Source: Candidatus Giovannonibacteria bacterium
GTDB taxonomy: Bacteria; Patescibacteriota; Minisyncoccia; JACPKW01; UBA11713
Length of the DNA stretch: 64,000 bases
Assembly: GCA_023266875.1 (NCBI GenBank)
Contig: JAHFOJ010000002.1
Location: 3,163-67,162, forward strand
Direction of reading: 5' to 3'
Part shown: positions 39,720-54,454 of the stretch, piece after piece
Layout: each line of letters opens with the position of its first letter
Position numbering within the stretch: the first letter of the stretch is position 1
Translations under genes and position numbers: made by a program
Notes under the pieces: model-generated
Told to the model about the DNA's origin: nothing
The model's database searches: none
The model's input: only the letters and a program-made list of their open reading frames with translations

Positions 39720-41354
39720 CTATGCCCCATATGGAGCTGGATTCGGAAGATTTCGGCGTAGCGGCAGTCGGATCAAGAACGTGCTGCCTCTGCCTACGCC
39801 TGGTGATTCTGCCCAAATTTCTCCTCCGTGATCAGATACTATTCGTTTCGCGAGATAAAGCCCAAGCCCTATTCCTTCCGCGTTCGCTTTCGCGCCCGTA
39901 TTTCCTCTGGTAAATCGGCTGAATATTCTTTCAAGATCTTCTTTCACCATGCCAACACCCGAATCGAGGAAAGTAATCAATAAAACCTCCCCCCCGCCGC
40001 TGCTTTTCGTTTCAATTTTTATTTTTACAAAACCTCGCGGGGTGTATTTGAGGTCATTGTCTATAATATTTGTAATAACTTGGCGGAACTTTTCCTTATC
40101 CACCGAAACATCTGGCAAAGTAGAGTCCGGCTTTTCGAAAATAAGTTCAATTTGCTTATCACGTGCTGGTCCTTGAAATTCGTCAACAACATTAGCGATC
40201 ATAGGAGCGATCTGGGTTGATTCAAAATTGTAATTCATGCGCCCCGATTCAATCCGTGACAAATTAAGAAAATCATTCACTAAATTAATTAAGCGCTCAT
40301 TTGAAAGATAAACTTTCGAGAGAGTTTCTCTGACTTTAGAAGATATTTCCCCAAAACTTCCCTCCTGAATCATAGAAATATATCCTTTAATAATTGAAAG
40401 CGGAGTCCGAAGCTGATGAGTGGCAAGCGAAAGAAATTCCGATTTCAGCTGATCAAGTTTCTTTAGTTCCACATTGGCTTTCTCCAAATCCTCCGCCAAC
40501 TTCTGAATCTGTTCTCTGGAGCGAACTTCTTGTAAAACACTGCGTATTAAAAGTAACCCAAAGAGAATAACCAATACCAGAAGGCCACCGTCAAGAAATG
40601 CATCCTGTAAAGTTCTAGCAATAACTGTTCTTACTAAAAGAAATACACAAATTGAAAAAACCAGTAGTTCGGTAGCAATAACACGCACATTAAATAAACG
40701 ATGCTTTATGACAGCATATCCAAGGAAAAAGGGAAAAAAAGAAACTAAAAAATTACCAAATGGCGGGATAGGAACTCCATACCATAAAAAAAAGTTCGTA
40801 GCCCCACCTCCGAATCCAAAAATCGCCCCAAGGACAACATAAGAGATCTGCCCTTTCTTTGATTTATCGGATAGCTTATAAGATTTTGCCAATAAAATGA
40901 AAGCATATAAAACCAGCACAAAATAGAAAAAGATTAGATAAAAAGTATAAAGCGGTCCAGGACTCGGCCAAAATGGGAAAAATAATTTTGGCCCTATGCT
41001 CTTTATAAATAAATTAGAGGTAGAAAAAAGGGTAAGTAAAATCGAAATAATATAAATTAAATATAAAAAACTGCGCTTATTTTTAGACTGACCCAACAGC
41101 TCTAAAACCCAGTGAAAGTAAAAAACTGGGATAAAAATTGATCCTATAGAGAAAAATCTTATCCAGAAAAGCGCTGGTTCAACACTTGCACTCGAAAGCC
41201 ACTGCCAATATCCAAAACTCCAGACTGCTATAGCAGCCGTCATAAGAAAAAACAATTGGTTAATTCTATCCCGGAAGCTTTTATAAATAAGAAGGAACCC
41301 AAAACTTAAAGCAAATATTCCGTTTACTAATCCAGATAAAGCAAAAATATTCAT
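39720..41354 (-). CDS. Sensor histidine kinase with an N-terminal multi-TM sensor domain
   Basis: About 7 predicted TM helices, a coiled-coil, HisKA (LSLATHQLRTPLSII) and HATPase_c (...DSGVGM...GLGLYLAKRIV...). Confidence 0.85.
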   Translation of the reverse strand: MNIFALSGLVNGIFALSFGFLLIYKSFRDRINQLFFLMTAAIAVWSFGYWQWLSSASVEPALFWIRFFSIGSIFIPVFYFHWVLELLGQSKNKRSFLYLIYIISILLTLFSTSNLFIKSIGPKLFFPFWPSPGPLYTFYLIFFYFVLVLYAFILLAKSYKLSDKSKKGQISYVVLGAIFGFGGGATNFFLWYGVPIPPFGNFLVSFFPFFLGYAVIKHRLFNVRVIATELLVFSICVFLLVRTVIARTLQDAFLDGGLLVLVILFGLLLIRSVLQEVRSREQIQKLAEDLEKANVELKKLDQLKSEFLSLATHQLRTPLSIIKGYISMIQEGSFGEISSKVRETLSKVYLSNERLINLVNDFLNLSRIESGRMNYNFESTQIAPMIANVVDEFQGPARDKQIELIFEKPDSTLPDVSVDKEKFRQVITNIIDNDLKYTPRGFVKIKIETKSSGGGEVLLITFLDSGVGMVKEDLERIFSRFTRGNTGAKANAEGIGLGLYLAKRIVSDHGGEIWAESPGVGRGSTFLIRLPLRRNLPNPAPYGA

Positions 41355-42232
41355 ATCTTACTAACCTTAGCAATAATATGGACTTTTAGTGGTTCAAATA
41401 TTATGTCTGGTTCACTCGAAAAACCGGCCTCAACCAATAGCTTCTTTAAATCCTTAGGTTCGCGATAATACATAAAAGGCCATCCTAAATTTGTGACAAA
41501 CGGCATTTCCTCATTTGGATGAACATTCGCCACAATAAAAACACCACCAGGCTTTAATATATTGTAAACACTTCTTATAAGTTCTGCTCCGCTTTCTTCC
41601 GAAAAATAATCTAAGAGCCCAACCATTTCTGCAATATCAAAAAAGTCCCCGCCCGATATTAACGTTTTTAAGTTACGTGCATCACCCCTAATCCAATCAA
41701 AAAGATCTGTGGAATCAAACTCCCCAGCGAGCTTTTTGCCAGCATCAATGGCGCGCTCATCCTTATCTATGTTTAAAACTTTTATATTTAAATGCCTCTC
41801 TTGGGAGATACGGTTTATAGATTGAATAAGAGCTCGCATCGAACCACCCCCAACGCTTATAATTTTGATTAAACGAGTATCGTCTATCCTCGTTAACCTT
41901 AAAATTTCTTCGTCCATATTCATTTCAACCAGCGCAAGCCGATTTCTTAAGGCTTTCGGCTGAGAGAAACAATGATGCCAAAATAAATCCGCCAAGCCCT
42001 GCATAATTCCTCTCGAAAATAAGCCACGTTGGTGTCTGGTATACATTGCATCTAAAGCAGCGGCAGTTCCTGTATTTTGAACTACAGTTTTAGAATCATG
42101 GCTTGTAGATCGCATCATCTTCTTTAGAAATTCCGGAGAAACATGATTCATAATTGGAACGCTAAAAATCCTGATAAACTTTGTCACCAGTCCATGAGTT
42201 TCCATTTCATTAGATATGGTTGTCGTTCCCAT
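41351..42232 (-). CDS. Class I SAM-dependent methyltransferase translationally coupled to the histidine kinase
   Basis: Motif I IISVGGGSMRA, an acidic motif II and motif IV in a Rossmann-fold MTase arrangement. It overlaps the HK gene by 4 nt. Confidence 0.65.
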   Translation of the reverse strand: MGTTTISNEMETHGLVTKFIRIFSVPIMNHVSPEFLKKMMRSTSHDSKTVVQNTGTAAALDAMYTRHQRGLFSRGIMQGLADLFWHHCFSQPKALRNRLALVEMNMDEEILRLTRIDDTRLIKIISVGGGSMRALIQSINRISQERHLNIKVLNIDKDERAIDAGKKLAGEFDSTDLFDWIRGDARNLKTLISGGDFFDIAEMVGLLDYFSEESGAELIRSVYNILKPGGVFIVANVHPNEEMPFVTNLGWPFMYYREPKDLKKLLVEAGFSSEPDIIFEPLKVHIIAKVSKI

Positions 42233-42767: not shown

Positions 42768-44687
42768 ATGAAGACGAAGAAAGCACGATGGATAATCGGA
42801 GGTTTAATTTTTTGGATAGTTGGATTGCTTGAGGGAAAAACTGAAGCAAATTTTGGTGGGCTCCATAGGGAATTTTCCCCATGCGCCCCAGGCAACGGCC
42901 GCGCAGTCGCGTTCAGCCCGGAGAGCAAAAATATTTTCTACACGCTCTGGAACGATACGCGAATATTCATAACCGACCCTAACAACACCACTTGCTCGGC
43001 GATTAATACTGGAATTGTTTTCGGAGCGCTCGCATACGACGGAAAACGCAAACGTCTCTGGGGCGCCGGTTATGACTATGGCCACCGCGGCGGAATTTAT
43101 CTGATTGATTCAAATGGTGCGTCCTCGCTCCAATTCAGCTTCATCCCCAACGAAACAACCTGCCTTCAGAACCAATATCATGGATATTTCACCGGACTTT
43201 CATATGATGAAGGCCCGACTTCATCGAACAGCGATGACTCGCTCTGGCTCGTCGACAATGACGGGAAAACAATTTACCACATGAGTCTGCAAGGCAATTT
43301 AATATCAAGTTCGGTAATTCCAAAGGGACCTCGTACCGGTCTCGTCGGCTGTGCAAATGGCATCGCCTCTGACAGGGACTTCTTGTGGATCACACTTATA
43401 TCTGGGTTGCATGCAGACATAAGCGGCATAATGCCTTTTGACATCGTAAAAGTCAGAAAATCTGACCCATCCACGATCGTCGAAAGTTTTTCTGCGGACA
43501 ACATAAACAACAACAGTCCAATAGGAATAGCGATCGAACGAGGAAAAACCATTCCAGGAAGAACCGGCCTATGGGTCAATTTTACCGGCGGAAATAATAT
43601 TAGACTCTTTGAAGCCGATAAAATCACTCCGGTCATTCTCGTAAACGGCTTTAGTGGCAACGCGGAAAGTTTCGGTCAAATGGCAGAATATCTAGCGCTT
43701 GACGGTTTTCCGGTGTATGTATTTGACTACGGAGAATTTACCGGACTAAATAGCGACATCTCAATCGAAGAAATCGCGGCGCTGTTCGCAGGATATGTTA
43801 ACGACGTCTTAAGAGTGACAGGAACCGGTCAAGTTGATATTGTAGTCCACTCAATGGGCGGACTTGTGGCAAGAGCATGGATCGCCGGCCTTGCGACAGT
43901 TCCGGTAAAATACACAGGACAAATTCGACGTATGATAACGCTCGGCACACTTAATTACGGAGCAGTGGCGGCGTCAATCGCAGATTTGATTATGACCAAT
44001 AACTCACCGATTCAGGGAGACGAGATGGCCCTTGGCAGTAACTTTCTATTAAACCTCCACAAGAATTGGATGGCCTTGAAATCATCAGGCGCGATTCTTC
44101 CTGATATTCTTTTTGTTGCAGGAACAAGCGGCATCGAAAATACTATTGATGAATGCGGCGGGATCGGCTGCTCGGATCAGATTGTCGATATCACAAGCGC
44201 CATTATGCCGGATGCCCCAGCAAACATGGTTCGTTACGTCCCATACATCCACGCGCATATCATGCCGTTGCCGTTCTCTCCGACGTCGATCGCTGAAATA
44301 GATTCAAAGGATCACGCCAGTTACAGAATTGCGAAAGCCTTCCTTGACGACGTAGTCTTGGACCAATGCTGCGACTCCGCCTCAATCGGATACACCCCGC
44401 CCCACGAAAGAAATGTGCCTAAAGAAAAAACGGGGACTCTGATTTTCCAGCTGATTGATAAGAAAGCCCTCACCCCGATTCTCGGCAAAAAAATAACAAT
44501 AAAACTCGATCGCGCAGCAAAAGCCGCGCTAATAGACATCAATTCGGGCACAGCCGGTGTGACAATCTTGAATCTGCCGGAGGGTTTACGCAAAGTAACC
44601 GTATCGGTAAAAGGTCGCAAAAACATAATTCTAAACATTGCAATTAAAGCTGCATACCCAATCGTGATATCAGAAATTGCAATGTGA
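42768..44687 (+). CDS. Secreted multi-domain protein with a class-2 (Bacillus LipA-like) alpha/beta-hydrolase lipase domain
   Basis: A signal peptide and an N-terminal domain of about 280 aa, followed by PVILVNGFSGNAESF ... VDIVVHSMGGLVARAW (the lipase GXSXG nucleophile elbow AHSMGG) and a C-terminal domain of about 230 aa. Confidence 0.75.
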   Translation: MKTKKARWIIGGLIFWIVGLLEGKTEANFGGLHREFSPCAPGNGRAVAFSPESKNIFYTLWNDTRIFITDPNNTTCSAINTGIVFGALAYDGKRKRLWGAGYDYGHRGGIYLIDSNGASSLQFSFIPNETTCLQNQYHGYFTGLSYDEGPTSSNSDDSLWLVDNDGKTIYHMSLQGNLISSSVIPKGPRTGLVGCANGIASDRDFLWITLISGLHADISGIMPFDIVKVRKSDPSTIVESFSADNINNNSPIGIAIERGKTIPGRTGLWVNFTGGNNIRLFEADKITPVILVNGFSGNAESFGQMAEYLALDGFPVYVFDYGEFTGLNSDISIEEIAALFAGYVNDVLRVTGTGQVDIVVHSMGGLVARAWIAGLATVPVKYTGQIRRMITLGTLNYGAVAASIADLIMTNNSPIQGDEMALGSNFLLNLHKNWMALKSSGAILPDILFVAGTSGIENTIDECGGIGCSDQIVDITSAIMPDAPANMVRYVPYIHAHIMPLPFSPTSIAEIDSKDHASYRIAKAFLDDVVLDQCCDSASIGYTPPHERNVPKEKTGTLIFQLIDKKALTPILGKKITIKLDRAAKAALIDINSGTAGVTILNLPEGLRKVTVSVKGRKNIILNIAIKAAYPIVISEIAM

Positions 44688-44745: not shown

Positions 44746-45378
44746 TTAAGCGCGAATATTTTCAAAAAGCGCAAGTATTTTTTCGTGTATAACCGCCGTC
44801 CCCTCTTCTACCGTAATCGAATTAGAATCGTCAAGCCTAAACGGCTCCCCGACGCAAATTTGAATATTTCGGCCTTGGGCTTTTATTGCGATGGGGATCA
44901 CCGGGACTTTCGCGCCTAGCGCGATTGCAGATGCCCCGTGGCGAAAAACTCCAAGCGCGCCGCTTTTTTGCACTCGTCCCTCTGGGAACATCACAACCGT
45001 CTCGCCTGACCTTAGAATATCGAGCGGGGTTTTTATGGCAGCGTCTATCCCTTCCCCGCGCTTCGACGGGAAAACCCCCATAATTCTGAACAGCAACGGG
45101 ATGAGGCCAATTTTCCGCAAAAAATCAAGAAATCTGTGATTAAATTTTATATATTCCCCCATATAACGAAGCGGAACGAGCGGCGAGAAAAGCGGCAAAG
45201 AAAGTCCGATTAAAAATGAGTCGTAAAACGCAATATGATTTGAAACTATAAGCACCGGCCCTGCGACGCGTTTAAACTCTTCGCGGCCCGAAATTTTGAC
45301 CTTACGAAAAATATGAAATAGCAGCCAAGAGCCGGGTTTTATTATAAAATTCTGACTAAATTTATACCAATATTTCAT
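44746..45378 (-). CDS. Lysophospholipid/glycerol-3-phosphate acyltransferase family protein (PlsC-like)
   Basis: The NHxxxxD motif (VSNHIAFYDS) and FPEGR motif. Confidence 0.8.
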   Translation of the reverse strand: MKYWYKFSQNFIIKPGSWLLFHIFRKVKISGREEFKRVAGPVLIVSNHIAFYDSFLIGLSLPLFSPLVPLRYMGEYIKFNHRFLDFLRKIGLIPLLFRIMGVFPSKRGEGIDAAIKTPLDILRSGETVVMFPEGRVQKSGALGVFRHGASAIALGAKVPVIPIAIKAQGRNIQICVGEPFRLDDSNSITVEEGTAVIHEKILALFENIRA

Positions 45379-45500: not shown

Positions 45501-46646
45501 CTACATTTTAAACATTCCGGCTAGTAAATCTCGAACAATCTCCGCCGTGCCGGCCGCCAGTGAAAAAGCCTGAGAATCTTGCCGAACATGCGAAAGCCAA
45601 TGATCTTCTAAAAATCCCTCGGCTCCGTGTAGGTGAACACATTCGCTAATAATTTTTTGACAATTCTCGTAACTAAATATTTTCAGCATTAAAATTTCTT
45701 TATCCACCGGCTTACCTTCTGCAAAAGCATCACATACCAAGTAGGTAAACTGTCTAGCGGCTTCTATGGTGGTACGCAACTCGACCATTCTATGACGAAT
45801 GACCTGTTTTTTACTAAGCGCTTCGTCAAATCGATGGCGGCTTTGAAGAAAATTAAGAGTGTCCTCCCAAATATAAAGAGCCAAAGAATTCAGCGCCACA
45901 GCTCCAATTAAACGTTCTCTTTGTAATCCGCGTAATAAGTATAGAAACCCTCGCGTGGAATCTCCAAGTAAACTACCCTTGGAGATTGAACAATCCTTAA
46001 AGCAGATCGATGCGGTATCACTTGTCTTTAATCCAACAGTAACGAGTTTCTCTCTTTTTATACCCCTTGCATCACCTGGCACTAAAAACAAACCAAGCGC
46101 CCAAATATCTTTTTGAGTTTTAGTTCGCGCTAATACAACTGTATAGTTGGCAATGGATCCATTTGTTATATATCTTTTTTCACCATTCAATATATAATTT
46201 TTACCTTTTAGCAGAGCCACTGTAGTAATAGATGCTAAGTCTGACCCGCTACTAGGATCAGTGGCAGCAAGCGCAAGATAAAATTTCCCGGCAAGTGCGG
46301 GTTTTAATATTTTTTCCTTTTGCTCATTATTTCCTAATTGAAAAATTAAAGGAGCAACCATGTTGCTTTGCACTAAAATAGACAACGCCCAGCCTAGTAC
46401 TCTAGATCGAGCTAATTCTTCGGCCAAGATAACTTCATGCCAAAAATCTTTATTACCACCCCCAACACTTTCAGGCAGGGAAAGACCGATAAATCCATGC
46501 TCGCCGACTTTCTGAAGTAGATTTACAGGAATACTTCTTGTTTTTTCCCATTCGAGCGCGTGAGGAATTACTTCTTTTGCTATAAATTTTCTAACAGTTT
46601 GCCGGAAATTTTTATGTGGTACATCTTCAAAAATAATAGGCTCCAT
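45501..46646 (-). CDS. Acyl-CoA dehydrogenase family protein, a possible acyl/aminoacyl-carrier-protein dehydrogenase
   Basis: 381 aa with the ACAD N/M/C-domain pattern (...YITNGSIANY..., C-terminal ...GAEGFLEDHWLSHVRQDSQAFSLAAGTAEI). An ACP gene lies immediately upstream. Confidence 0.8.
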   Translation of the reverse strand: MEPIIFEDVPHKNFRQTVRKFIAKEVIPHALEWEKTRSIPVNLLQKVGEHGFIGLSLPESVGGGNKDFWHEVILAEELARSRVLGWALSILVQSNMVAPLIFQLGNNEQKEKILKPALAGKFYLALAATDPSSGSDLASITTVALLKGKNYILNGEKRYITNGSIANYTVVLARTKTQKDIWALGLFLVPGDARGIKREKLVTVGLKTSDTASICFKDCSISKGSLLGDSTRGFLYLLRGLQRERLIGAVALNSLALYIWEDTLNFLQSRHRFDEALSKKQVIRHRMVELRTTIEAARQFTYLVCDAFAEGKPVDKEILMLKIFSYENCQKIISECVHLHGAEGFLEDHWLSHVRQDSQAFSLAAGTAEIVRDLLAGMFKM

Positions 46647-46650
46647 AATA

Positions 46651-46908
46651 TTAAAAAGATTCTATTGGTAGCTTACGCTTACTACTACCCTTGTTCTGAA
46701 TTACATAATCCACAATATCGCCAACTGTCTTAATATGATTCATTTTACTAGGCTCTATTGAAACTTTATATTCATCACTCAAAACAGCAATTAATTCGAC
46801 TATATCCATTGAGTCCTTGGCGATATCTTCGAGAAGTGTAGAATCATTAACCTGATTCGGTTCTTTATATAACGTAGCTCTTATTATTTCTATAATTTCA
46901 TCTTTCAT
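46651..46908 (-). CDS. Acyl carrier protein (phosphopantetheine attachment DSMD)
   Basis: 85 aa with LEDIAKDSMDIVELIAVL, a PP-binding serine motif. Confidence 0.75.
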   Translation of the reverse strand: MKDEIIEIIRATLYKEPNQVNDSTLLEDIAKDSMDIVELIAVLSDEYKVSIEPSKMNHIKTVGDIVDYVIQNKGSSKRKLPIESF

Positions 46909-47456
46909 AATAAATCCTTAAAATAAGTCTTGAATGGCTCTGTGTTTGAAAGCTTGTCATAAACCTCCTCGTCCATTTTCTCCAATTTCTGCATAATCGC
47001 ATCCAATTTCCCCTGACCATTTTCCCGGGCATACTTATCTAATTCTTCGCGTATCCATCCGATGTGACCAGTCTCATCATCAATCATTTTTTGTAAGGCC
47101 TCTTTAACCAGAGGATTTGTATCGGGTAGGTTTAGATGTTTGGTGAATTGATTAAGTGTGCGTTTTTCAAAAACTTGGGTCAAGCAAAAAATCTCAAGGG
47201 TATTTTCCGGCATCCCGAATAATTTCCCATACTCAGTTTGATAAGTTTCCGTCACCTTAACTGGTATACGTCCAAGATCCTTAATCACTTTTGTCCAACG
47301 CCAAGCATGCTCGGCCTCCTCGAGGCAGTGTTCGGTTAGTGGAATTCGATATTCACCTATAGTGGTGTGAAAAGCAAGTTTACCAAACAAGATTGAGCCA
47401 GATAGTTCACACGCACGATAGTAACTGAGAATATATAATTCTTGGTCTGACATCAT
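46905..47456 (-). CDS. Ferritin-like or diiron-carboxylate protein (putative oxidase/oxygenase subunit)
   Basis: 183 aa with the paired EEAEHAWRW and DDETGHIGW (E..H) motifs typical of diiron sites. It overlaps its neighbours by 4 nt. Confidence 0.5.
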   Translation of the reverse strand: MMSDQELYILSYYRACELSGSILFGKLAFHTTIGEYRIPLTEHCLEEAEHAWRWTKVIKDLGRIPVKVTETYQTEYGKLFGMPENTLEIFCLTQVFEKRTLNQFTKHLNLPDTNPLVKEALQKMIDDETGHIGWIREELDKYARENGQGKLDAIMQKLEKMDEEVYDKLSNTEPFKTYFKDLL

Positions 47457-47458
47457 AT

Positions 47459-48157
47459 TTATATTTGTTTATCGGCAAGAGCTTCACTCGGTCGTTTGCC
47501 CACTAATCGTCCCACTTTTTCATTAAAACCTTGGATGATTCTTATATTATCTTCTTTTGCCGGTGAAACTTGTGGCATAACGTACTCTCCTATGTGTTGA
47601 TAGTTTAGTGCGTGTTCAAGTACCTGACCCTTAACCTTAGGGTCTGCTTTGATCATTTCTTCAAGTAAATCAAAAGCGAATTGAGAATGACTGACTTCTT
47701 CGGCAGAAAATCTTGGCAGAAGATTTTTTAAAACCGGCTCTTCGGTGAGTTGTATGAGGTCTCTAAAGAATTCGGCGGCAAAATGTTCGGTGCCCATAAA
47801 ATTTACTAACTCACGTACTTTGTCCGTATATCTTTTATCCTTATCTTTTGAACGCACATCTCTAACTTCTTCATCTGTTACTGGATTGTATCCGACAATT
47901 TCAAGGTATCGTCGTAAAATAAAATAATGACCATATGCCTCAAACGCCTCTATTGTAAAAATTGAAGTTGCCGCCACGTTGTCCCAAAATAGTTCGTTCA
48001 TTTTTCCTGTGTAAATGGGGAGGTAGCACTCCACAAGACAAGCTTCGCGCAACAAGTCTAAACATTTAGTGTTCTTTAATGCCAATTCTTTATTGATTGA
48101 TTTCCAATCAACCCTGCTATCAAAAATTTTACTATTAGCGAAGTCAATGGTTGTCAT
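47459..48157 (-). CDS. Diiron oxidase/oxygenase-like protein (ferritin-like or heme-oxygenase-like fold)
   Basis: 232 aa with EAFEAYGHY, TEHFAAEFF and AEEVSHSQF His/Glu helices. Confidence 0.5.
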   Translation of the reverse strand: MTTIDFANSKIFDSRVDWKSINKELALKNTKCLDLLREACLVECYLPIYTGKMNELFWDNVAATSIFTIEAFEAYGHYFILRRYLEIVGYNPVTDEEVRDVRSKDKDKRYTDKVRELVNFMGTEHFAAEFFRDLIQLTEEPVLKNLLPRFSAEEVSHSQFAFDLLEEMIKADPKVKGQVLEHALNYQHIGEYVMPQVSPAKEDNIRIIQGFNEKVGRLVGKRPSEALADKQI

Positions 48158-48158
48158 A

Positions 48159-48989
48159 TTAGTCTTTTACTCCAATTAGTATTGTTTGTAACTCATTTTG
48201 ATAAGCGTGAATTGTATTAAATCCGGCTTGATTAGCAAGGATTTTTAAAAAATCCTCTGAACGATAGTGGGTATAAAGTTCTGCAATATTTTTCATTAGA
48301 TATTCGGAAAATTTATGCGGCATCATTCCTGATGTAAAAAATATCCCACCTTCTTTTAAATTATTGTGGGCAATTTTATAAAAATGCAGAGTATCCTCAT
48401 CGCTTAAGAACTCAGTGAACCCCGTACAGATAATCATATCGTATTTTTTGTTTTTTCGGTAGCTCTCTTCATTAAACGCATCCCCTTGCCAAAAAAACAT
48501 TTGATGCTTGTGATGATCATTTTTCTTTCCTAATACCTCTATGAGTTCACGATCCAAATCAATTCCATGCCATCTGATGCGCTTATAAAATGGGTGACTC
48601 GCGATTTGTAGTTCATGGGCGACTTCAAAAATTTCTCTCCCGAGTCCACATGGCACTGCTAAAATATCAATCGGCTCTTTGTGACGCACGTTATCTATAA
48701 GATTGTAGATTTCTTCTTTAGCGTGAATATATCTTGATCGGAGGGAACGAGACGACTTTAAATTTAAGAGTATGGAATCAAGTATTTTTCCGATAACAAA
48801 TTTACCCTTGGGTTTATTGGCATAGATATGATCAGCAAATTGATAGCTTCCTGAATTTTTAATTCCTTCACGAGCCAGCTCACTTGTTAATAGTAAATAA
48901 TAAATAGGCAAAAGATAGGACTTTCCCTCTCTCAATAATTTTCTAGGGATCGAGGAAGATTGGCGAGTTTTATTGTAACATTTTGGCAT
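48159..48989 (-). CDS. Class I SAM-dependent methyltransferase
   Basis: Motif I ILAVPCGLGREIF and WHGIDLD, with a Rossmann MTase arrangement. Confidence 0.7.
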   Translation of the reverse strand: MPKCYNKTRQSSSIPRKLLREGKSYLLPIYYLLLTSELAREGIKNSGSYQFADHIYANKPKGKFVIGKILDSILLNLKSSRSLRSRYIHAKEEIYNLIDNVRHKEPIDILAVPCGLGREIFEVAHELQIASHPFYKRIRWHGIDLDRELIEVLGKKNDHHKHQMFFWQGDAFNEESYRKNKKYDMIICTGFTEFLSDEDTLHFYKIAHNNLKEGGIFFTSGMMPHKFSEYLMKNIAELYTHYRSEDFLKILANQAGFNTIHAYQNELQTILIGVKD

Positions 48990-49743
48990 ATTTTTTGAAT
49001 TTCTTTGGCCAGGTCTTTTGGTCGCCCCCCCAAACTTTTAAACTATAGGCGGTCAATCTTTCTATACCAAAAGCAACACAGAGAGAGTTTGAAAAAGTCT
49101 TGCCATTTTTTATGTCGAAGCGTTTCCCAAAAAAATCTTCGTGATTGTTTATTGAAGCTAACGCGATTTTTCTTTTTCCATCATGTACTATAAATTCTTG
49201 TTTGAGACCTTTAAGTTGCTGAATCATTTTTGCCCCCTCATCTTGTCCAAGAAAGAAAGCATCTGTGGCATTTTTAAACTCACCATTGAACCCGAAATCA
49301 GTAAGGGTTGTTTTTACTAAATCTTCAATCCTCTTAATTTTTTCGATAATCTCTTTTTCATTTCCAATAATTACCAATTCAACCATATGAAAATCTGGGA
49401 GACGATATGGTGATTGCCAATTTCCATTCTCATATCTTGCGCAATGAGCCATTCCAAATGCGGCGTACTTCTTTACGTCTTTACCTTTTAGTTCGGGATA
49501 TACATGTAGGCAAGCCGCCGGTGTTACAAATTGCTCTGTTGAATTAAGAGTATTCATTGCAGTAAAAAGTTGATTTGGAAAATGTTTAAAATATTTTGCA
49601 TCAAACAAAACCTTTTTCGAAATGAAAAGAGGCGGGTTGAAAACTGAATCATAATGGGGACGGAAAATGTTATGCAAAAATAACACCCACGCTTGGAATA
49701 AGCGTATTTTTTGCAACATCGATTTATTATGAGTTTTAGTCAT
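48970..49743 (-). CDS. Truncated seryl-tRNA-synthetase-like class II catalytic core, a putative amino acid:[carrier-protein] ligase
   Basis: 257 aa lacking the N-terminal tRNA-binding arm. Motif 2-like is ...HCARYENG...YRLPDFHMVELVI (compare SerRS CFRREAG...RVHQFEKVE). Motif 3-like is CVAFGIERL. It overlaps the downstream ACP gene by 8 nt. Confidence 0.65.
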   Translation of the reverse strand: MTKTHNKSMLQKIRLFQAWVLFLHNIFRPHYDSVFNPPLFISKKVLFDAKYFKHFPNQLFTAMNTLNSTEQFVTPAACLHVYPELKGKDVKKYAAFGMAHCARYENGNWQSPYRLPDFHMVELVIIGNEKEIIEKIKRIEDLVKTTLTDFGFNGEFKNATDAFFLGQDEGAKMIQQLKGLKQEFIVHDGKRKIALASINNHEDFFGKRFDIKNGKTFSNSLCVAFGIERLTAYSLKVWGGDQKTWPKKFKKYAKMLQ

Positions 49744-49969
49744 CGCTCTTCAAAAATGTTTCCACTATCTTCCGAACAGATTCAAAATTTGGCATTATAA
49801 CTTCATCGTCTGTTAATTTTCGTCCCAAATGCTTTTCTATATAGCCGATAAGATCGAGAATATTCATTGAATCTAATACTTTATCCTTAAATAGGAGGGT
49901 ATTTGAATCGATGGTTCGACCCTTATCACGACAAATGCTTTTTATAAATTTTAGAAGTTCCTGTTGCAT
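49736..49969 (-). CDS. Acyl/aminoacyl carrier protein (phosphopantetheine attachment DSMN)
   Basis: 77 aa with KVLDSMNILDLIGYIE, a PP-binding serine. Confidence 0.75.
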   Translation of the reverse strand: MQQELLKFIKSICRDKGRTIDSNTLLFKDKVLDSMNILDLIGYIEKHLGRKLTDDEVIMPNFESVRKIVETFLKSDD

Positions 49970-49970
49970 A

Positions 49971-51131
49971 TTATTGAATTTTACCCCATTTAGATTTTAT
50001 GCAGTACTCTATAACTTTTCCGTAGTAATCGCGAATACCCGGCAAATGCTTTTTATAATCTGGGAGCATCGCCAACAGACTGTTTTGGAAAAAGTTTTTT
50101 GGATAGAGAAGTTGATGGGCAAAATGATTAAGAGCGGATAATACGTTTTTTAAAACGGGATTATTTGCGGATACCGCTGAATTCATAAAGAGGTCAAAAG
50201 CCTCTTCTGATACAATAGCTGGTTTAGGATAGTTTTTTTCTACCCAGCTAGAGTCTGCTTCTGCCATGCCCTTAAAACTCTCATCTATGATTTCTTGCAG
50301 GGTTAGTGATCCTGATCCGTGTGTAATATGAAAAGTTTTATTTGGGGAAAAGTTATTCCAAAAGAGGTTAAAAAGAGTACTCGCCGTATAGTCACTCGAA
50401 ATGAGATCAACAGAGTAGTTAGGAGTACCAGGAAACATTGAAGCTAAGCCAAGATACATCATGCGTATTGCTTGGTGGGGTGCAGTAAAATGACTAACCT
50501 TTCCTGTTTTACTATCGCCAATTACCGTAGAAAGGCGGTATATAGCCACAGGAACACTTTTAGCCAAGTTCTTCAAAAATACCTCCGCTTCATATTTGGA
50601 TTGCTCGTATGTATTTACAAAACCAGCCTCATGTTCTAACTCGTTTTCTTTGATAATCCCTATTCTTTTGCCGCTTACGTAAGCTGTGCTTATAAAGCCA
50701 AATTGTTTGAGGTTAGAACACTTTTGACCAAAGTCAGCAACATTTTTTGTGCCGGTAACATTTATTTGTCTTGCTTCACCCAGCGGAAGATCAAATCTCG
50801 TAGAGGCGGCACAGTGAAAAATATGGGTCGTTTTACCAAGTAGATCGTTATAGTCGGAAGAACTTTCTACCCCCATATTCTGTTTTGTGATATCGCCCTT
50901 TATAATTTGTAATCTTTCCATGAATTCTTTTTTATTTTGCAATGCAAAAAATGATTGTAAAATCGTTTTTTTATCACCACCCGATCCCTTGTCATGTACT
51001 AAAAGATAGATATTTGCTTGAGTATTTTTAAACAAAAGAGAAACGAGCTCTCTCCCTACCATCCCCGTGCCACCGGTAATAAAAATTTGTTGCGCCATAT
51101 ACTCTAATGTTGCAAGATTAGACAAGACCAA
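49971..51131 (-). CDS. NAD(P)-dependent thioester reductase (fatty acyl-CoA/ACP reductase-like, NAD_binding_4/SDR fold)
   Basis: Rossmann ITGGTGMVG, catalytic YEQSK (YxxxK), and a length and organisation typical of terminal reductase (R) domains. Confidence 0.7.
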   Translation of the reverse strand: MVLSNLATLEYMAQQIFITGGTGMVGRELVSLLFKNTQANIYLLVHDKGSGGDKKTILQSFFALQNKKEFMERLQIIKGDITKQNMGVESSSDYNDLLGKTTHIFHCAASTRFDLPLGEARQINVTGTKNVADFGQKCSNLKQFGFISTAYVSGKRIGIIKENELEHEAGFVNTYEQSKYEAEVFLKNLAKSVPVAIYRLSTVIGDSKTGKVSHFTAPHQAIRMMYLGLASMFPGTPNYSVDLISSDYTASTLFNLFWNNFSPNKTFHITHGSGSLTLQEIIDESFKGMAEADSSWVEKNYPKPAIVSEEAFDLFMNSAVSANNPVLKNVLSALNHFAHQLLYPKNFFQNSLLAMLPDYKKHLPGIRDYYGKVIEYCIKSKWGKIQ

Positions 51132-52075
51132 TTGGCTCCAAAGCCAAACGTAAATAACGCCAGATAATCTCCTTTTTTAAGATAGCCATCTTTATCCATA
51201 TCTACGAGATTAATAATATGATCACAAGAAACGGTGTGACCAACTCGTGATATATTTTTTGACCAAATCTTTTCCATTGGAGTGTGAAGTAGCTTTGAGA
51301 GTATCTCCCAACTCCTTAAACTCACATTATGAGGTACAAACCATTTAATATCTGACATGGTTAATCCCGCCCCCTTAACTGCGTTTTCAATTGTCCGTTG
51401 TGCCATTGGAAAATAAGAAGCTAATAATTCGTTTTCATGTTGCGGGGTATCCCAGTAGTAGGATTGAAATTCTTGATGAAAATATACTATCCTATTCTTT
51501 TCGGAATTTTTGGTGACTACAAGTGCTGCCGTGGCATCACTCATAATGTTGTACATAATTTCTCTTTTGGTTCCAGCTGGTAATGCATCAACAGCTGCGC
51601 ATAGTATTGATTCTTGTTGCGTGTTTGAGTTAGAAAGCAATTGATCCGCCAGATCAATTGCAGATAACAATCCGCTGCAACCCTGTTGAGATAGACCAAT
51701 TGCGTTCGCATTAAAAAGCCCAAGCTTATGTCGAAGCTCTGCGGCCGGATAACGAAATAAATTCAATGCGTTACCCTCATCTTGGTTATTAGCACTGTTG
51801 ATTCCGGAGTATAAAAAAATTCGAGTAATACTATCACCGGTAGTTTTATTTTCGCGCAAGACTTCTTCGGCGCTATTTAATAAAAGACCCTCAATGCTCT
51901 CGTTGTTGCTTTGAACATAACATTCCCTAAATCCAAAATCGTGCAATACTGATACAGGCGAAGTGATCTTCTTTTCTTCCTCGAGTTGTTCAAGCGACTT
52001 CTTATTTCTGGGAAGCCGATATGCCAGCGCCGCTATACCAATTGATGTTTGGCTTTTGTCTATATTTTTTTTCAT
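51104..52075 (-). CDS. 3-oxoacyl-ACP synthase III (FabH-like) ketosynthase/acyltransferase
   Basis: The active-site Cys block GCSGLLSAIDLA, the His block WFVPHNVS and the C-terminal FGFGANWSCLIL, all in the thiolase fold. Confidence 0.75.
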   Translation of the reverse strand: MKKNIDKSQTSIGIAALAYRLPRNKKSLEQLEEEKKITSPVSVLHDFGFRECYVQSNNESIEGLLLNSAEEVLRENKTTGDSITRIFLYSGINSANNQDEGNALNLFRYPAAELRHKLGLFNANAIGLSQQGCSGLLSAIDLADQLLSNSNTQQESILCAAVDALPAGTKREIMYNIMSDATAALVVTKNSEKNRIVYFHQEFQSYYWDTPQHENELLASYFPMAQRTIENAVKGAGLTMSDIKWFVPHNVSLRSWEILSKLLHTPMEKIWSKNISRVGHTVSCDHIINLVDMDKDGYLKKGDYLALFTFGFGANWSCLILQH

Positions 52076-52694
52076 AAGCTACGCTGATATAAAAATCTTT
52101 TACCTTAAATGGCCAAACATACCAAATAGGCGATTTAAATTTATGCATCTTAACTTTAAAAGTTGTATTTTTAATCTTATCAATAATTTCTGCTTGTTTG
52201 GGAGGTATAGCAAAACCAACCCCGACTCCTTTCATAACTGACTCTTTGATAACCCAGATTAGGCTTATTATATCTGTTCTACTCCCAAAAAAATTTTGCA
52301 CTAAGTCTATCTCATTCTGGTCAGCAACATAGTTAAGAAGAGATTTTTTATGAGGTCTAATCTTCTCTATGTCGATACCTACTTTATATGGAGCGACAAC
52401 TCCAATTCCTCGATCATACGAATGACTCAATGAATAATAAATATTATACCGTCCTTCAATATACGGCAATCCATTTTCGGCATTTTTAATAGTTACATCC
52501 TTATCTAAATCCTCGGCGACATAGTTGGTCAGGGCTTGTTTTAATGCAATGCGTCCTAGCAAAAAATCTTTCTTTCTATTATTGGAGAGTTGGCGATATT
52601 GATGAAGTTCGTTTTTATTTAGCTTCGACTTGGCATTGGAATCGATTTTATTAATGCCGACTATACTGGATGTCATGCTTATATAATCACACAA
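52002..52694 (-). CDS. 4'-phosphopantetheinyl transferase (Sfp type)
   Basis: VGIDIEKI (GxDxE) and WVIKESVMKGVGVG (W..KEA..K motif). Confidence 0.75.
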   Translation of the reverse strand: MCDYISMTSSIVGINKIDSNAKSKLNKNELHQYRQLSNNRKKDFLLGRIALKQALTNYVAEDLDKDVTIKNAENGLPYIEGRYNIYYSLSHSYDRGIGVVAPYKVGIDIEKIRPHKKSLLNYVADQNEIDLVQNFFGSRTDIISLIWVIKESVMKGVGVGFAIPPKQAEIIDKIKNTTFKVKMHKFKSPIWYVWPFKVKDFYISVAYEKKYRQKPNINWYSGAGISASQK

Positions 52695-52713
52695 AATCTG
52701 TTATAATTCAACT

Positions 52714-53214
52714 ATGATTTTAACCTACATTTATTTGGGTTTGGTATTACTTGGACTTTGTTTTATTGCTTTTCGAAATAAGACTTCACTATTAAGGGGC
52801 GATAGATTTTTAAGATTCAACTTATTTTTTTTAATAATATCAGTGGTAATTGTTTTTGTAAGAAAAACATCCCTAGAAGACTTAATCATGATTGGTCTAG
52901 CATTTGTTGTAATAATTTCGTTTTTGTTTAGAAACAAGTGGCTGCTATTTAAATACTCATCTCTTAAAACATCGGCTGTTGTAGAAGACTCATTATCAAG
53001 AGTTTTGATACCATTTCAAAAAACAGAGAGTGGATATATACTTAAACCGACACCAGAAGGAAGTACTTATTTGCGATTGGCGAATTTTTGGCCAAATTGT
53101 GCTATTATTATTTTCGGAGGCGATTGGCATTTAAAAAAGGTCGAGGTGCTAAAAAACCTTCTCAAGAAAAATTTTTCTGGGGTATTCCCCAAACTAGTAA
53201 TTAAATTAAAATAA
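52714..53214 (+). CDS. Hypothetical integral membrane protein
   Basis: 166 aa with about 4 TM helices. It is divergent from the biosynthetic operon. Confidence 0.4.
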   Translation: MILTYIYLGLVLLGLCFIAFRNKTSLLRGDRFLRFNLFFLIISVVIVFVRKTSLEDLIMIGLAFVVIISFLFRNKWLLFKYSSLKTSAVVEDSLSRVLIPFQKTESGYILKPTPEGSTYLRLANFWPNCAIIIFGGDWHLKKVEVLKNLLKKNFSGVFPKLVIKLK

Positions 53215-53218
53215 CCTT

Positions 53219-53656
53219 ATGTCACGAGTTACTAAAGTAGCTTCAATAAAAGCAGAGCCAGCTAAGGTGATAGAGTACATTGCTAATGTAAAAAATCATC
53301 CAGCTTTTATTTCGGCACTAAAATCAATCGACAACCTCAATGGGGATCCAAAGCACATGGGTGAAAGCTGGGATTGGACATTCGTTATGGGCGGAGTTGA
53401 GATCAATGGTAAGGCAGAGACGGCTGACTATGTGGCAGGCAAACACTATTCGTTCAAAACCACCGGTGGTATAGTAAGCGCTTTTAGCTACAGTGTTGAG
53501 CCCGAAGATGGCGGTGCAAGACTGACTATGGATGTGAACTATGAAGTTCCACAAAATGTGCTTGCCAAAGCAATGGACAAAGCTGTTGTTGAGCGATTGA
53601 ACAATCAAGAAGGTGATCGAGCGGTTGAGAATCTTCAAGCTATACTCGGAGTTTAA
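53219..53656 (+). CDS. SRPBCC (START/Bet v1/polyketide cyclase-like) ligand-binding protein
   Basis: 145 aa with ...AEPAKVIEYIANVKNHPAF... and a fold-typical pattern. Confidence 0.65.
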   Translation: MSRVTKVASIKAEPAKVIEYIANVKNHPAFISALKSIDNLNGDPKHMGESWDWTFVMGGVEINGKAETADYVAGKHYSFKTTGGIVSAFSYSVEPEDGGARLTMDVNYEVPQNVLAKAMDKAVVERLNNQEGDRAVENLQAILGV

Positions 53657-53687
53657 TGAATTTCTTGTCCGGCATTGTTCCAATGCT

Positions 53688-54287
53688 ATGGTTGTATTTG
53701 CTCAATATTGCTTTTACCTTATCTCCCATCCTCTATTTAAGATATTTTTTCAACCAAAAATCGTTGGCATCGAACATATACCAACGAGGCCTTTCATTGT
53801 AGCGGCAAATCATACTTCAAAAATAGACCCGTTTCTTTTGTGTCTATTACCTTTTTCAGCAGCTAAACAATTGATGCCAATTTATTTTTTAACCAGTGAA
53901 TATTATTATAAAAAATGGTATCTCAAGCCTATATTAAAATTGTTTGGTTGTTATCCCGTAGCGAAAAGGGCATGGACAATGGAAGAATTTTTGTCCAGCA
54001 GTCTTAAGAAACTAAAGAATGGAAAGGTAATCATGTTTTTCCCTGAGGGGAAAATTATAAATGATGGCAAGAGAGATAAACCTCGGCCAGGGATTGGATA
54101 TTTAATCGAAAAATCAAGTAAGCCGATTTTACCCTTACACATAGAGTGGGGTAAAAACAAAGCCCTCGCTCCTAAAAAATTAAAACTTTCTTTTGGTAAG
54201 TTACTGTCATTCCAAAATGAGAGTGGACAACTAAATTCTTATGGAAAAACAGCAGAAAAAATAATGGCAAATATTTATTCATTATAA
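53688..54287 (+). CDS. Second PlsC-family acyltransferase
   Basis: The NHxxxxD motif (AANHTSKIDP) and FPEGK motif. The ATG at 53688 is more likely than the track start. Confidence 0.75.
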   Translation: MVVFAQYCFYLISHPLFKIFFQPKIVGIEHIPTRPFIVAANHTSKIDPFLLCLLPFSAAKQLMPIYFLTSEYYYKKWYLKPILKLFGCYPVAKRAWTMEEFLSSSLKKLKNGKVIMFFPEGKIINDGKRDKPRPGIGYLIEKSSKPILPLHIEWGKNKALAPKKLKLSFGKLLSFQNESGQLNSYGKTAEKIMANIYSL

Positions 54288-54376: not shown

Positions 54377-54454
54377 TGGCGCCCCCGCCGGGATTTGAAC
54401 CCGGGTTACATGGATGAGAACCATGCGTCCTGGACCAGGCTAGACGACAGGGGC
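54377..54454 (-). tRNA. tRNA-Glu (anticodon CTC)
   Basis: Manual cloverleaf: GCCCCTG acceptor, anticodon stem CATGG/CCATG with loop TTCTCAT, T-arm CCGGG-TTCAAAT-CCCGG and 3' GCCA. The 5' half resembles canonical tRNA-Glu. Confidence 0.8.

Follow-up and report, generated by a model that had tools for sequence, protein, structure and literature searches.

A short class II synthetase-like enzyme, probably an amino acid:[carrier protein] ligase, encoded next to a carrier protein in a conserved gene cluster of uncultivated lineages

The stretch of DNA analysed here (the window) comprises 64,000 nt of contig JAHFOJ010000002.1 (positions 3,163 to 67,162, forward strand) in assembly GCA_023266875.1 of a Candidatus Giovannonibacteria bacterium. 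On its minus strand, at 48970–49743, lies a gene for a 257-aa protein that is probably an aa:CP ligase (amino acid:[carrier protein] ligase) of a short subfamily, related to class II aminoacyl-tRNA synthetases (aaRSs), as judged from matches to PF00587 and NF005479, homology to Bll0957 of Bradyrhizobium and the AlphaFold2 (AF2) fold. The gene directly upstream on the same strand (49736–49969) encodes CP1, a 77-aa carrier resembling peptidyl carrier proteins (PCPs), and the two genes are translationally coupled. An earlier reading of this DNA made from its letters (the sequence-only reading) had reported an 8-nt overlap between the pair, and the raw sequence at the junction bears this out exactly (49736–49743): the CP1 gene ends in AGC GAT GAC TAA and the ATG of the ligase lies inside gATGACTAA. 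The class II motif 2 and 3 patterns quoted in the same reading are all found in the translation, with CARYE at residues 101–105, RLPDFHMVELV at 114–124 and FGIERL at 225–230, and both the fold and Pfam agree with them; PAAC lies at 75–78.

In Pfam, the ligase falls in the class II core family tRNA-synt_2b (PF00587), where its 31.9 bits exceed the gathering score (29.3). In NCBIfam, NF005479 (‘amino acid--[acyl-carrier-protein] ligase’) ranked first with E=1.6e-25, the match covering positions 122–313 of 318, the C-terminal two thirds. Models of the methanogen-type seryl-tRNA synthetase (SerRS) came behind, at E=4.6e-10 and 3.9e-4; the scores were 38.7 bits for NF002120 (cutoff 611) and 19 bits for TIGR00415 (cutoff 489.55), and in both profiles the C-terminal 170–190 residues alone were covered. 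Among solved structures, the best relative of the single sequence was Bll0957 (E=9e-13). When a profile of 23 family members was compared with the same structures, the match to Bll0957 rose to E=1e-31 and now took in the motif-1 helix as well, followed by the SerRS of M. kandleri (5.6e-11) and M. barkeri (1.9e-8).

The AF2 model (pLDDT 92, pTM 0.89) consists of a single catalytic core with a long motif-1 helix at residues 3–30. As the sequence-only reading had said, the N-terminal coiled-coil arm is absent, and the model contains no tRNA-binding domain. In a Foldseek ranking of PDB entries, the top 10 were all Bll0957 (E=2e-20, TMq 0.81, 23% identity), and the SerRS catalytic domains of M. barkeri and M. 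kandleri and then other SerRSs came after them. The arrangement that the earlier reading took for that of an aa:CP ligase is thus in line with both rankings, in which Bll0957 is nearest by sequence and by fold, ahead of methanogen-type SerRS. The likeness to the latter (M. barkeri 2cim/2cj9; M. kandleri 3w3s) is in the catalytic fold (TMq 0.78–0.80), the Zn-site positions and the HxE/FG..F segment before motif 3, whereas the window ligase differs in having neither the N-terminal tRNA-binding domain nor the SerRS-specific insertions and in sharing 16–18% identity.

Residue conservation was counted over 103 full-length members of the subfamily (232–288 aa). C78, R103, E105, F118, E122, C222 and R229 were invariant in all 103, and the family also conserves the motif 1 helix with Pro37/38, the C-A-R-Y-E...F118...E122 of motif 2 and the G-I-E-R229 of motif 3. 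In alignments, C78, E105 and C222, together with the motif 2 and 3 positions, have identical counterparts in both Bll0957 and methanogen SerRS. The three positions correspond to what we take to be the Zn ligands of those enzymes, and C78/E105/C222 would accordingly form a putative zinc triad; the sequence-only reading had suggested a look at the zinc-site residues, and this Cys/Glu/Cys set turned out to be conserved along with the motif 1, 2 and 3 residues. R103 (motif 2), F118, E122 and R229 (motif 3) are predicted to bind ATP, with F118 stacking on the adenine.

A carrier-recognition element also seems to be present. An engineered Bll0957 (4h2w), whose crystals contain a foreign carrier, differs from the wild type within chain positions 242–252 and nowhere else, and these positions align to residues 168–178 of the window ligase, where residues 169–178 form a predicted surface helix of lower model confidence; the region contains the subfamily-invariant Q175, K181 and E183. 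The corresponding helix of Bll0957 reportedly binds the carrier and sets carrier specificity, a result ascribed to Mocibob et al. in 2013. From this alignment, it therefore appears that the carrier-docking element is kept in the window ligase. Compared with Bll0957, the window ligase is shorter by ~26 residues at the N-terminus and ~12 at the C-terminus, and by a stretch of ~23 residues that would follow motif 1 and precede the first Zn ligand. The earlier description of the enzyme as truncated holds in that it is shorter than SerRS, but the term is relative: the protein is also ~60–70 aa shorter than Bll0957, and the short length is a property of the whole subfamily.

To what extent the enzyme and its partner gene are maintained can be seen from their relatives. 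A word-indexed search returned 67 ligase homologues of 219–281 aa, and a profile search of 1.84 billion representatives returned 1869 relatives, of which 1398 had E<=1e-10 and 426 had E<=1e-30; when the profile hits were re-scored, a gap from ~211 to 185 bits separated the short subfamily from other relatives. In comparison with an orthologue of 78% identity, the ligase had a dN/dS of 0.12 and CP1 one of 0.19. By these sequence criteria the ligase is a catalytically intact enzyme under purifying selection, and because of this selection and the conserved length it does not look like a decayed SerRS, a possibility that the sequence-only reading had named as one that would refute its call. In every intact related locus read, the gene order is the same: a β-ketoacyl-ACP synthase III (KASIII)-like enzyme, a thioester reductase (TR), CP1, the ligase, a methyltransferase, proteins of 232 and 183 aa, and the acyl carrier protein (ACP) ACP2. 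The proteins of these loci are 37–93% identical to those of the window, and synteny of KASIII, TR, CP1, ligase, methyltransferase, dimetal protein(s) and ACP2 held at identities of 29–78%. The CP1 gene immediately precedes that of the ligase wherever the locus is intact, and the two overlap by 4–14 nt in each case, including the archaeal and sister-clade loci described below. With 67 homologues of the ligase, 426 representative relatives at E<=1e-30 and the same overlapping pair in every intact locus, the observation is far beyond chance.

Taken together, we consider it probable from homology, fold and residue conservation that the 257-aa protein is a ligase that aminoacylates a carrier protein. 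Two points weigh against this assignment. The score of the ligase against NF005479 is 89.7 bits and falls well below the equivalog cutoff of 357, and its identity to Bll0957 is just 23%. Since the equivalog cutoff is so far from reached, the ligase is better regarded as a separate subfamily. Ten more distant relatives behaved in the same way, NF005479 being the best NCBIfam model for all of them with scores under the cutoff (59–206 bits), so the aa:CP-ligase superfamily is far broader than NF005479, which covers the canonical subgroup only. Many aa:CP-ligase-like proteins of 340–417 aa, with ~100–200 extra N-terminal residues lacking a Pfam match, were seen among the representative hits (P0119–P0207).

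The comparison with the prototype Bll0957 of Bradyrhizobium japonicum, glycine:[carrier protein] ligase 1 (PDB 3mey, 3mf1, 4h2s; Mocibob et al. 2010, 2013), summarizes the case. Both enzymes consist of a class II core that has no tRNA-binding domain, and they share the Cys/Glu/Cys residues and those of motifs 2 and 3, the carrier-recognition helix and an adjacent carrier-protein gene. They differ in length and sequence as given above, in that CP1 of the window is PCP-like with no detectable relation to the Bradyrhizobium carrier, and in that the window ligase sits in a tightly conserved cluster of 11–13 genes with two carriers, found in uncultivated lineages including an archaeon. Of the features of aa:CP ligases that a sequence can reveal, the window ligase has all except the NF005479 score.

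CP1 carries its predicted phosphopantetheine serine, Ser34, in the DSMN motif that the sequence-only reading had pointed out, and the assignment is based on profile matches and on the invariant D33-S34. With the single CP1 sequence, the Pfam PP-binding match was just under the threshold (19.8 vs 20.8; E=1e-3). A profile of 10 orthologues matched 6cxt in the PDB at 1e-8 and the type II PCPs PigG and PltL at ~1e-6; the serine motif across the orthologues was DS(M/I)N, with Asp33 and Ser34 invariant. The second carrier, ACP2 (46651–46908, minus), is an 85-aa ACP of the fatty acid synthase (FAS) type with a DSMD motif (PF00550, E=9e-10; NCBIfam ACP models, 50–52 bits), and its PDB matches were AcpP-type ACPs (~1e-8). 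The CP1 and ACP2 families are related to each other by hhalign (E=1.3e-4) with their serines aligned.

Bearing on carrier choice is a sister clade, represented by two loci (L019 5578–11713 and L020 117–2233), whose ligase is 29–33% identical to that of the window and contains a C-terminal PP-binding domain (PF00550, E=5.7e-11), giving a fused protein of 345 aa. A separate CP1-type gene is still located upstream, in a neighbourhood of KASIII, TR, the CP1-type gene, the ligase, 232-aa-type and 183-aa-type proteins and a methyltransferase. The sister-clade methyltransferase is 453 aa long and has an N-terminal extension. Because such ligase::PP-binding fusions exist in nature, a Rosetta-stone link that we regard as strong, the ligase clade can be taken to work on carrier proteins.

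The fusions also complicate the choice of carrier. The fused domain in both loci matches ACP2 (E=3e-6 and 5e-6), not CP1, and by the logic of adenylation–thiolation (A-T) didomains in nonribosomal peptide synthetases (NRPSs) this would favour ACP2 as the loaded carrier. Neither CP1 nor ACP2 showed, in profile comparisons with the PDB, any detectable likeness to the partner carriers of Bll0957 and Atu2573 (4h2s–4h2y). An alternative with the same ligase chemistry is that the acceptor is the FAS-type ACP2, or both carriers, with CP1 serving the TR or the KASIII step; the retention of a CP1-type gene beside the fused ligases fits this alternative, as does the position of CP1 directly after the TR gene, which ends one base before the CP1 ATG. 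We think this unlikely. A fusion indicates a functional linkage but is silent on which thiol is acylated. CP1 is found universally and its translation is coupled to that of the ligase, and an Anaerolineaceae variant of the cluster lacks ACP2 and has both the ligase and CP1; moreover, CP1 resembles the type II PCPs that carry aminoacyl groups (PigG, PltL), whereas ACP2 resembles the housekeeping AcpP, and AcpP could plausibly replace ACP2 in an organism with its own fatty-acid synthase. For these reasons we lean towards CP1 as the acceptor of the aminoacyl group. Because the cluster has two carriers and the natural fusion is of the ACP2 type, loading of the neighbouring 77-aa protein is likely, not proven; the gene of what the sequence-only reading called a dedicated carrier does adjoin and overlap that of the ligase.

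The remaining genes of the cluster include those expected for carrier-dependent chemistry. A Sfp-type 4'-phosphopantetheinyl transferase (PPTase) is encoded at 52002–52694 (minus; PF01648, E=4e-14, plus 4PPT_N, with weak NCBIfam matches of the AusB/HetI/AcpT type), so the enzyme that the sequence-only reading had invoked for activating the carrier does lie in the same operon. The KASIII (FabH)-like enzyme (51104–52075, minus; PF08541, E=9e-19) has a non-canonical active site when aligned to FabH 2ebd: the nucleophilic Cys is kept, an invariant GH(T/S) stands for the GNT of FabH so that His replaces Asn, and in the orthologues from Dormibacterota PHN is changed to PSN, with Ser in the position of the FabH His. 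Classical decarboxylative condensation by this enzyme is not assured because of these residues, which suggest a non-canonical, possibly non-decarboxylative or acyl-transfer reaction. Tetronate-forming FabH homologues and ChlB3-type KASIII acyltransferases, which link substrates borne by two carrier proteins, offer an analogy, as a KASIII fold placed beside two different carriers; ChlB3 (7eqi) was among the PDB matches, weakly (E=5e-5), and the difference is a Cys/(His|Ser)/His set in the window enzyme vs the canonical Cys-His-Asn. The stand-alone NAD(P)-dependent TR (49971–51131, minus; PF07993 NAD_binding_4, E=2e-52; TIGR01746, E=2e-30) shows GxxGxxG and YxxxK in its translation and is syntenic in all loci.

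Downstream of the ligase, in all loci, comes a SAM-dependent methyltransferase of the Methyltransf_20 family (48159–48989, minus; PF12147, E=2e-13), for which PDB searches gave generic matches only. A second, distant Methyltransf_20-like methyltransferase (41351–42232, minus), 24% identical to some of the cluster methyltransferases, lies elsewhere in the window, directly downstream of a histidine kinase with a 7TM domain (39720–41354, minus). The maximal open reading frames of the ligase and the cluster methyltransferase overlap by 20 nt (48970–48989), and those of the PPTase and the KASIII-like enzyme by 74 nt (52002–52075); the true starts of the downstream genes in these overlaps may lie further in.

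Two small proteins that follow are candidates for dimetal oxidases. The 232-aa protein (47459–48157, minus) is a ferritin-like dimetal-carboxylate protein similar to acyl-ACP desaturases and R2lox, with a match to Mtb DesA2 at E=3e-6. Its AF2 model has a pLDDT of 95.5, its candidate Glu/His ligands are invariant, and its fold matches were weak (R2lox, stearoyl-ACP desaturases and proteins like aldehyde-deformylating oxygenase (ADO); TM 0.5–0.6, best E=2e-3), so that ADO, desaturase and N-oxygenase roles are indistinguishable. The 183-aa protein (46905–47456, minus) appears to be a four-helix-bundle dimetal protein with two ExxH motifs and weak Pfam matches to rubrerythrin, ferritin and AurF; EE..H and DE..H motifs are conserved, and a PDB search returned only designed four-helix bundles (de novo due-ferri) and bacterioferritin. 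An acyl-CoA/acyl-ACP dehydrogenase (ACAD) with all three ACAD domains (45501–46646, minus) is accessory, being found among the loci compared only in the window and in loci L001, L014 and L016.

Several genes at the borders are suggestive of lipids. On the plus strand, divergently transcribed, a 166-aa membrane protein (52714–53214) has a hydrophobic N-terminal half and no match in a Pfam scan and is syntenic in most loci; it is followed by a protein of the SRPBCC/Polyketide_cyc2 lipid-binding fold (53219–53656, plus; PF10604, E=2e-13), whose orthologues are 51–80% identical and occupy the same position in other loci, and by a PlsC-type acyltransferase (53613–54287, plus; PF01553, E=7.5e-19) with the HX4D motif NHTSKID, conserved in L001, L012, L014 and L017. 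A further PlsC-type acyltransferase at the operon end (44746–45378, minus; PF01553, E=5e-17) is loosely associated, as it is not syntenic in other loci. Beside it is a 639-aa lipase/alpha-beta hydrolase protein with a signal-peptide-like N-terminus (42768–44687, plus; Lipase_2, E=4e-10), which is likewise not syntenic elsewhere. An Rfam scan of the whole window found 3 tRNAs only and no riboswitch that would hint at the amino acid. Counts of promoters (39 vs 30.6±5.6 in shuffled sequence) and terminators (13 vs 8±3) were near those of shuffled sequence and were set aside.

The cluster was seen only in MAGs (metagenome-assembled genomes) labelled Paceibacterota, Dormibacterota, Chloroflexota and Rhodothermales and in one DPANN archaeon. 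Clusters have 11–13 genes, and the PPTase, the membrane protein and the SRPBCC protein are present in most related loci, the PPTase at the operon head. The Anaerolineaceae variant has neither the 183-aa protein nor ACP2 nor ACAD and keeps the remainder. Among 185,579 species-representative genomes, the ligase subfamily was detected in 8, all of them MAGs, with the labels Anaerolineaceae, Chloroflexi, Dormibacterota (3), Paceibacterota (2) and Rhodothermales; the closest labelled relatives of the window ligase are from the Paceibacterota MAGs. The statement in the sequence-only reading that such ligases are known from very few lineages thus applies to this rare subfamily, but not to the wider group, with its 1869 related representative metagenome clusters. 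Searching with the 232-aa protein as bait gave 180 homologues and revealed two further cases of the cluster.

The first of these is a complete cluster (L017 2992–10494) on the 221-kb contig JAWCQE010000001.1 of a MAG labelled ‘Candidatus Pacearchaeota archaeon’, with genes for an acyltransferase, SRPBCC protein, PPTase, KASIII-like enzyme, TR, carrier protein, 268-aa ligase, methyltransferase, both dimetal proteins and ACP. It lies ~4 kb from the archaeal genes for the large and small subunits of PolD, with a phage-type integrase on the other side. A pathway of ACP, PPTase and KASIII is unusual in a DPANN archaeon and implies inter-domain transfer. The second is a remnant on a 503-kb contig of a Minisyncoccota MAG (L016 7346–11666), in which the methyltransferase is truncated, the whole region upstream of it has given way to an insertion sequence (IS) element (HTH_Tnp_1 + rve), and only the two dimetal proteins, the ACP and ACAD are intact. 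In the window itself, GC content is 35–39% in the cluster (46000–54000) and mostly 41–46% elsewhere, and a tRNA-Glu(CTC) gene (54377–54454) lies between the cluster and murF, features compatible with a horizontally acquired island. DnaK, DnaB, CysRS, GluRS, a class II synthetase of the D/K/N type, MurD and MurF are also encoded in the window, which is chromosomal and bacterial. To our reading of the literature the gene context of this ligase subfamily is previously undescribed.

Homology, fold and conserved residues were observed directly, as were purifying selection, the coupling of the genes and their synteny; from these we infer zinc binding, catalysis, carrier choice and every downstream step of the following scheme. 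The Sfp-type PPTase of the operon would first convert the carrier to its holo form. The ligase would bind ATP through its motif 2 and 3 arginines and hold a small amino acid by the alpha-amino group at the Cys78/Glu105/Cys222 zinc site, forming an aminoacyl-adenylate; CP1, the likeliest acceptor, would dock on the exposed helix 169–178, and the aminoacyl group would be moved to the phosphopantetheine thiol on its Ser34 in place of tRNA. Loading of an amino acid on the phosphopantetheine of a small free-standing carrier at the expense of ATP is known from DltA/DltC and from stand-alone NRPS A domains paired with type II PCPs, such as PltF/PltL and PigI/PigG, with the difference that the activating enzymes there are members of the ANL (class I adenylate-forming) superfamily, whereas the window ligase has a class II aaRS fold.

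Aminoacyl-S-CP1 would then serve as a nitrogen-containing building block of a conserved thiotemplated pathway. The KASIII-like enzyme may couple it, through a C-C or C-N bond, with an acyl or malonyl unit on ACP2, or on the housekeeping ACP where ACP2 is absent; tailoring of the intermediate could fall to the methyltransferase and both dimetal oxidases, joined in some clusters by the acyl-ACP dehydrogenase, and the TR could release it as an aldehyde or alcohol. The presence of the SRPBCC protein, the membrane protein and the PlsC-type acyltransferases suggests a lipid-like amino compound in or on the membrane. We hold this downstream scheme tentatively, even in outline: it is drawn from domain content alone, the Cys/(His|Ser)/His set of the KASIII-like enzyme is unusual, and the dimetal proteins have no close characterised relatives, all of which count against it.

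One specific form of the scheme, which is more doubtful still, is a route free of tRNA and NRPS, in which glycyl-, alanyl- or seryl-S-CP1 and fatty acyl-ACP2 would be joined by KASIII and the product released by TR, N-methylated, oxidized by the dimetal proteins and installed in the membrane by the PlsC-type enzymes. A variant would use a non-decarboxylative Claisen reaction between glycyl-S-CP1 and a fatty acyl thioester followed by reductive release, giving an amino alcohol like a 3-keto-sphingoid. A product of this kind, a sphingoid-base-like amino-alcohol or amino-aldehyde lipid made without pyridoxal phosphate (PLP), is possible, not probable. We also considered a conversion of prolyl to pyrrolyl groups, as CP1 resembles PigG/PltL and ACAD has matches to PigA/RedW, and set it aside because ACAD is missing in most clusters and its best matches are generic acyl-CoA dehydrogenases.

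The lipid-related genes could also be explained in another way, with aminoacyl-S-CP1 not as a building block but as a compound that donates its aminoacyl group to a lipid or polymer of the envelope. This would be a counterpart of Dlt (D-alanylation) or MprF that is independent of tRNA and in which the PlsC-type enzymes or the 166-aa protein would carry out the transfer. This would account for the linkage of two HX4D acyltransferases, a membrane protein and an SRPBCC protein to the cluster and for the adjoining secreted lipase-like protein, and CP1 does have weak matches to the DltC and AsbD models. The match to DltC is 19 bits (cutoff 68), however, and no homologue of MBOAT/DltB or DltD was found among the cluster proteins. 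The explanation also leaves the co-conserved KASIII-like enzyme, TR, methyltransferase and dimetal oxidases without a role, and we know of no PlsC-type acyltransferase that uses aminoacyl thioesters. We judge it improbable.

We regard as very improbable a reading in which the ligase represents a fragment of SerRS that has decayed or moonlights, or else an adenylate-forming enzyme, AsnA-like or of another kind, that uses no carrier protein, with the CP neighbour there by coincidence: the sub-threshold match of the single CP1 sequence, the ligase score under the NCBIfam cutoff and the crystallization of Bll0957 also with CoA (3pzc), which makes small thiols conceivable acceptors, are outweighed by catalytic and Zn positions invariant in 103/103 members, a dN/dS of 0.12, SerRS models scoring well under the aa:CP ligase model (38.7 bits, cutoff 611), the absent tRNA-binding domain and an overlapping CP gene that is conserved along with the ligase at every locus and that occurs as a fusion with it among relatives. 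A bona fide methanogen-type SerRS is contradicted by the missing N-terminal tRNA-binding domain together with the partial profile match.

A probable carrier-protein ligase in a fixed gene setting bears on a class of enzymes whose role has been unexplained since 2010. The biological role of aa:CP ligases was still given as unknown in a 2022 review, and the full-text literature that we searched contained no account of this cluster, no pathway role for such ligases and no later answer. The main value of the conserved cluster is that it provides a testable setting for these enzymes, which link ribosomal-type and thiotemplated activation of amino acids; the pathway is compact enough to make the question of their role a reconstitution of about ten proteins. 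In addition, the 257-aa ligase is among the smallest apparently complete class II aaRS cores and is thus relevant to studies of minimal synthetases (urzymes) and to enzyme engineering.

The organisms that carry the cluster give it a further meaning. Ultra-small symbionts are reported to be without membrane-lipid synthesis (10.1101/465690). The occurrence of the cluster in MAGs of Paceibacterota/Minisyncoccota, members of the candidate phyla radiation (CPR), and on a Pacearchaeota contig bears on how such symbionts obtain or modify hydrophobic molecules. If the lipid route free of tRNA and NRPS were true, it would give aa:CP ligases their first physiological role, and it would mean that CPR bacteria and a DPANN archaeon, whose lineages are regarded as incapable of making their own lipids, have a capacity to build or remodel them.

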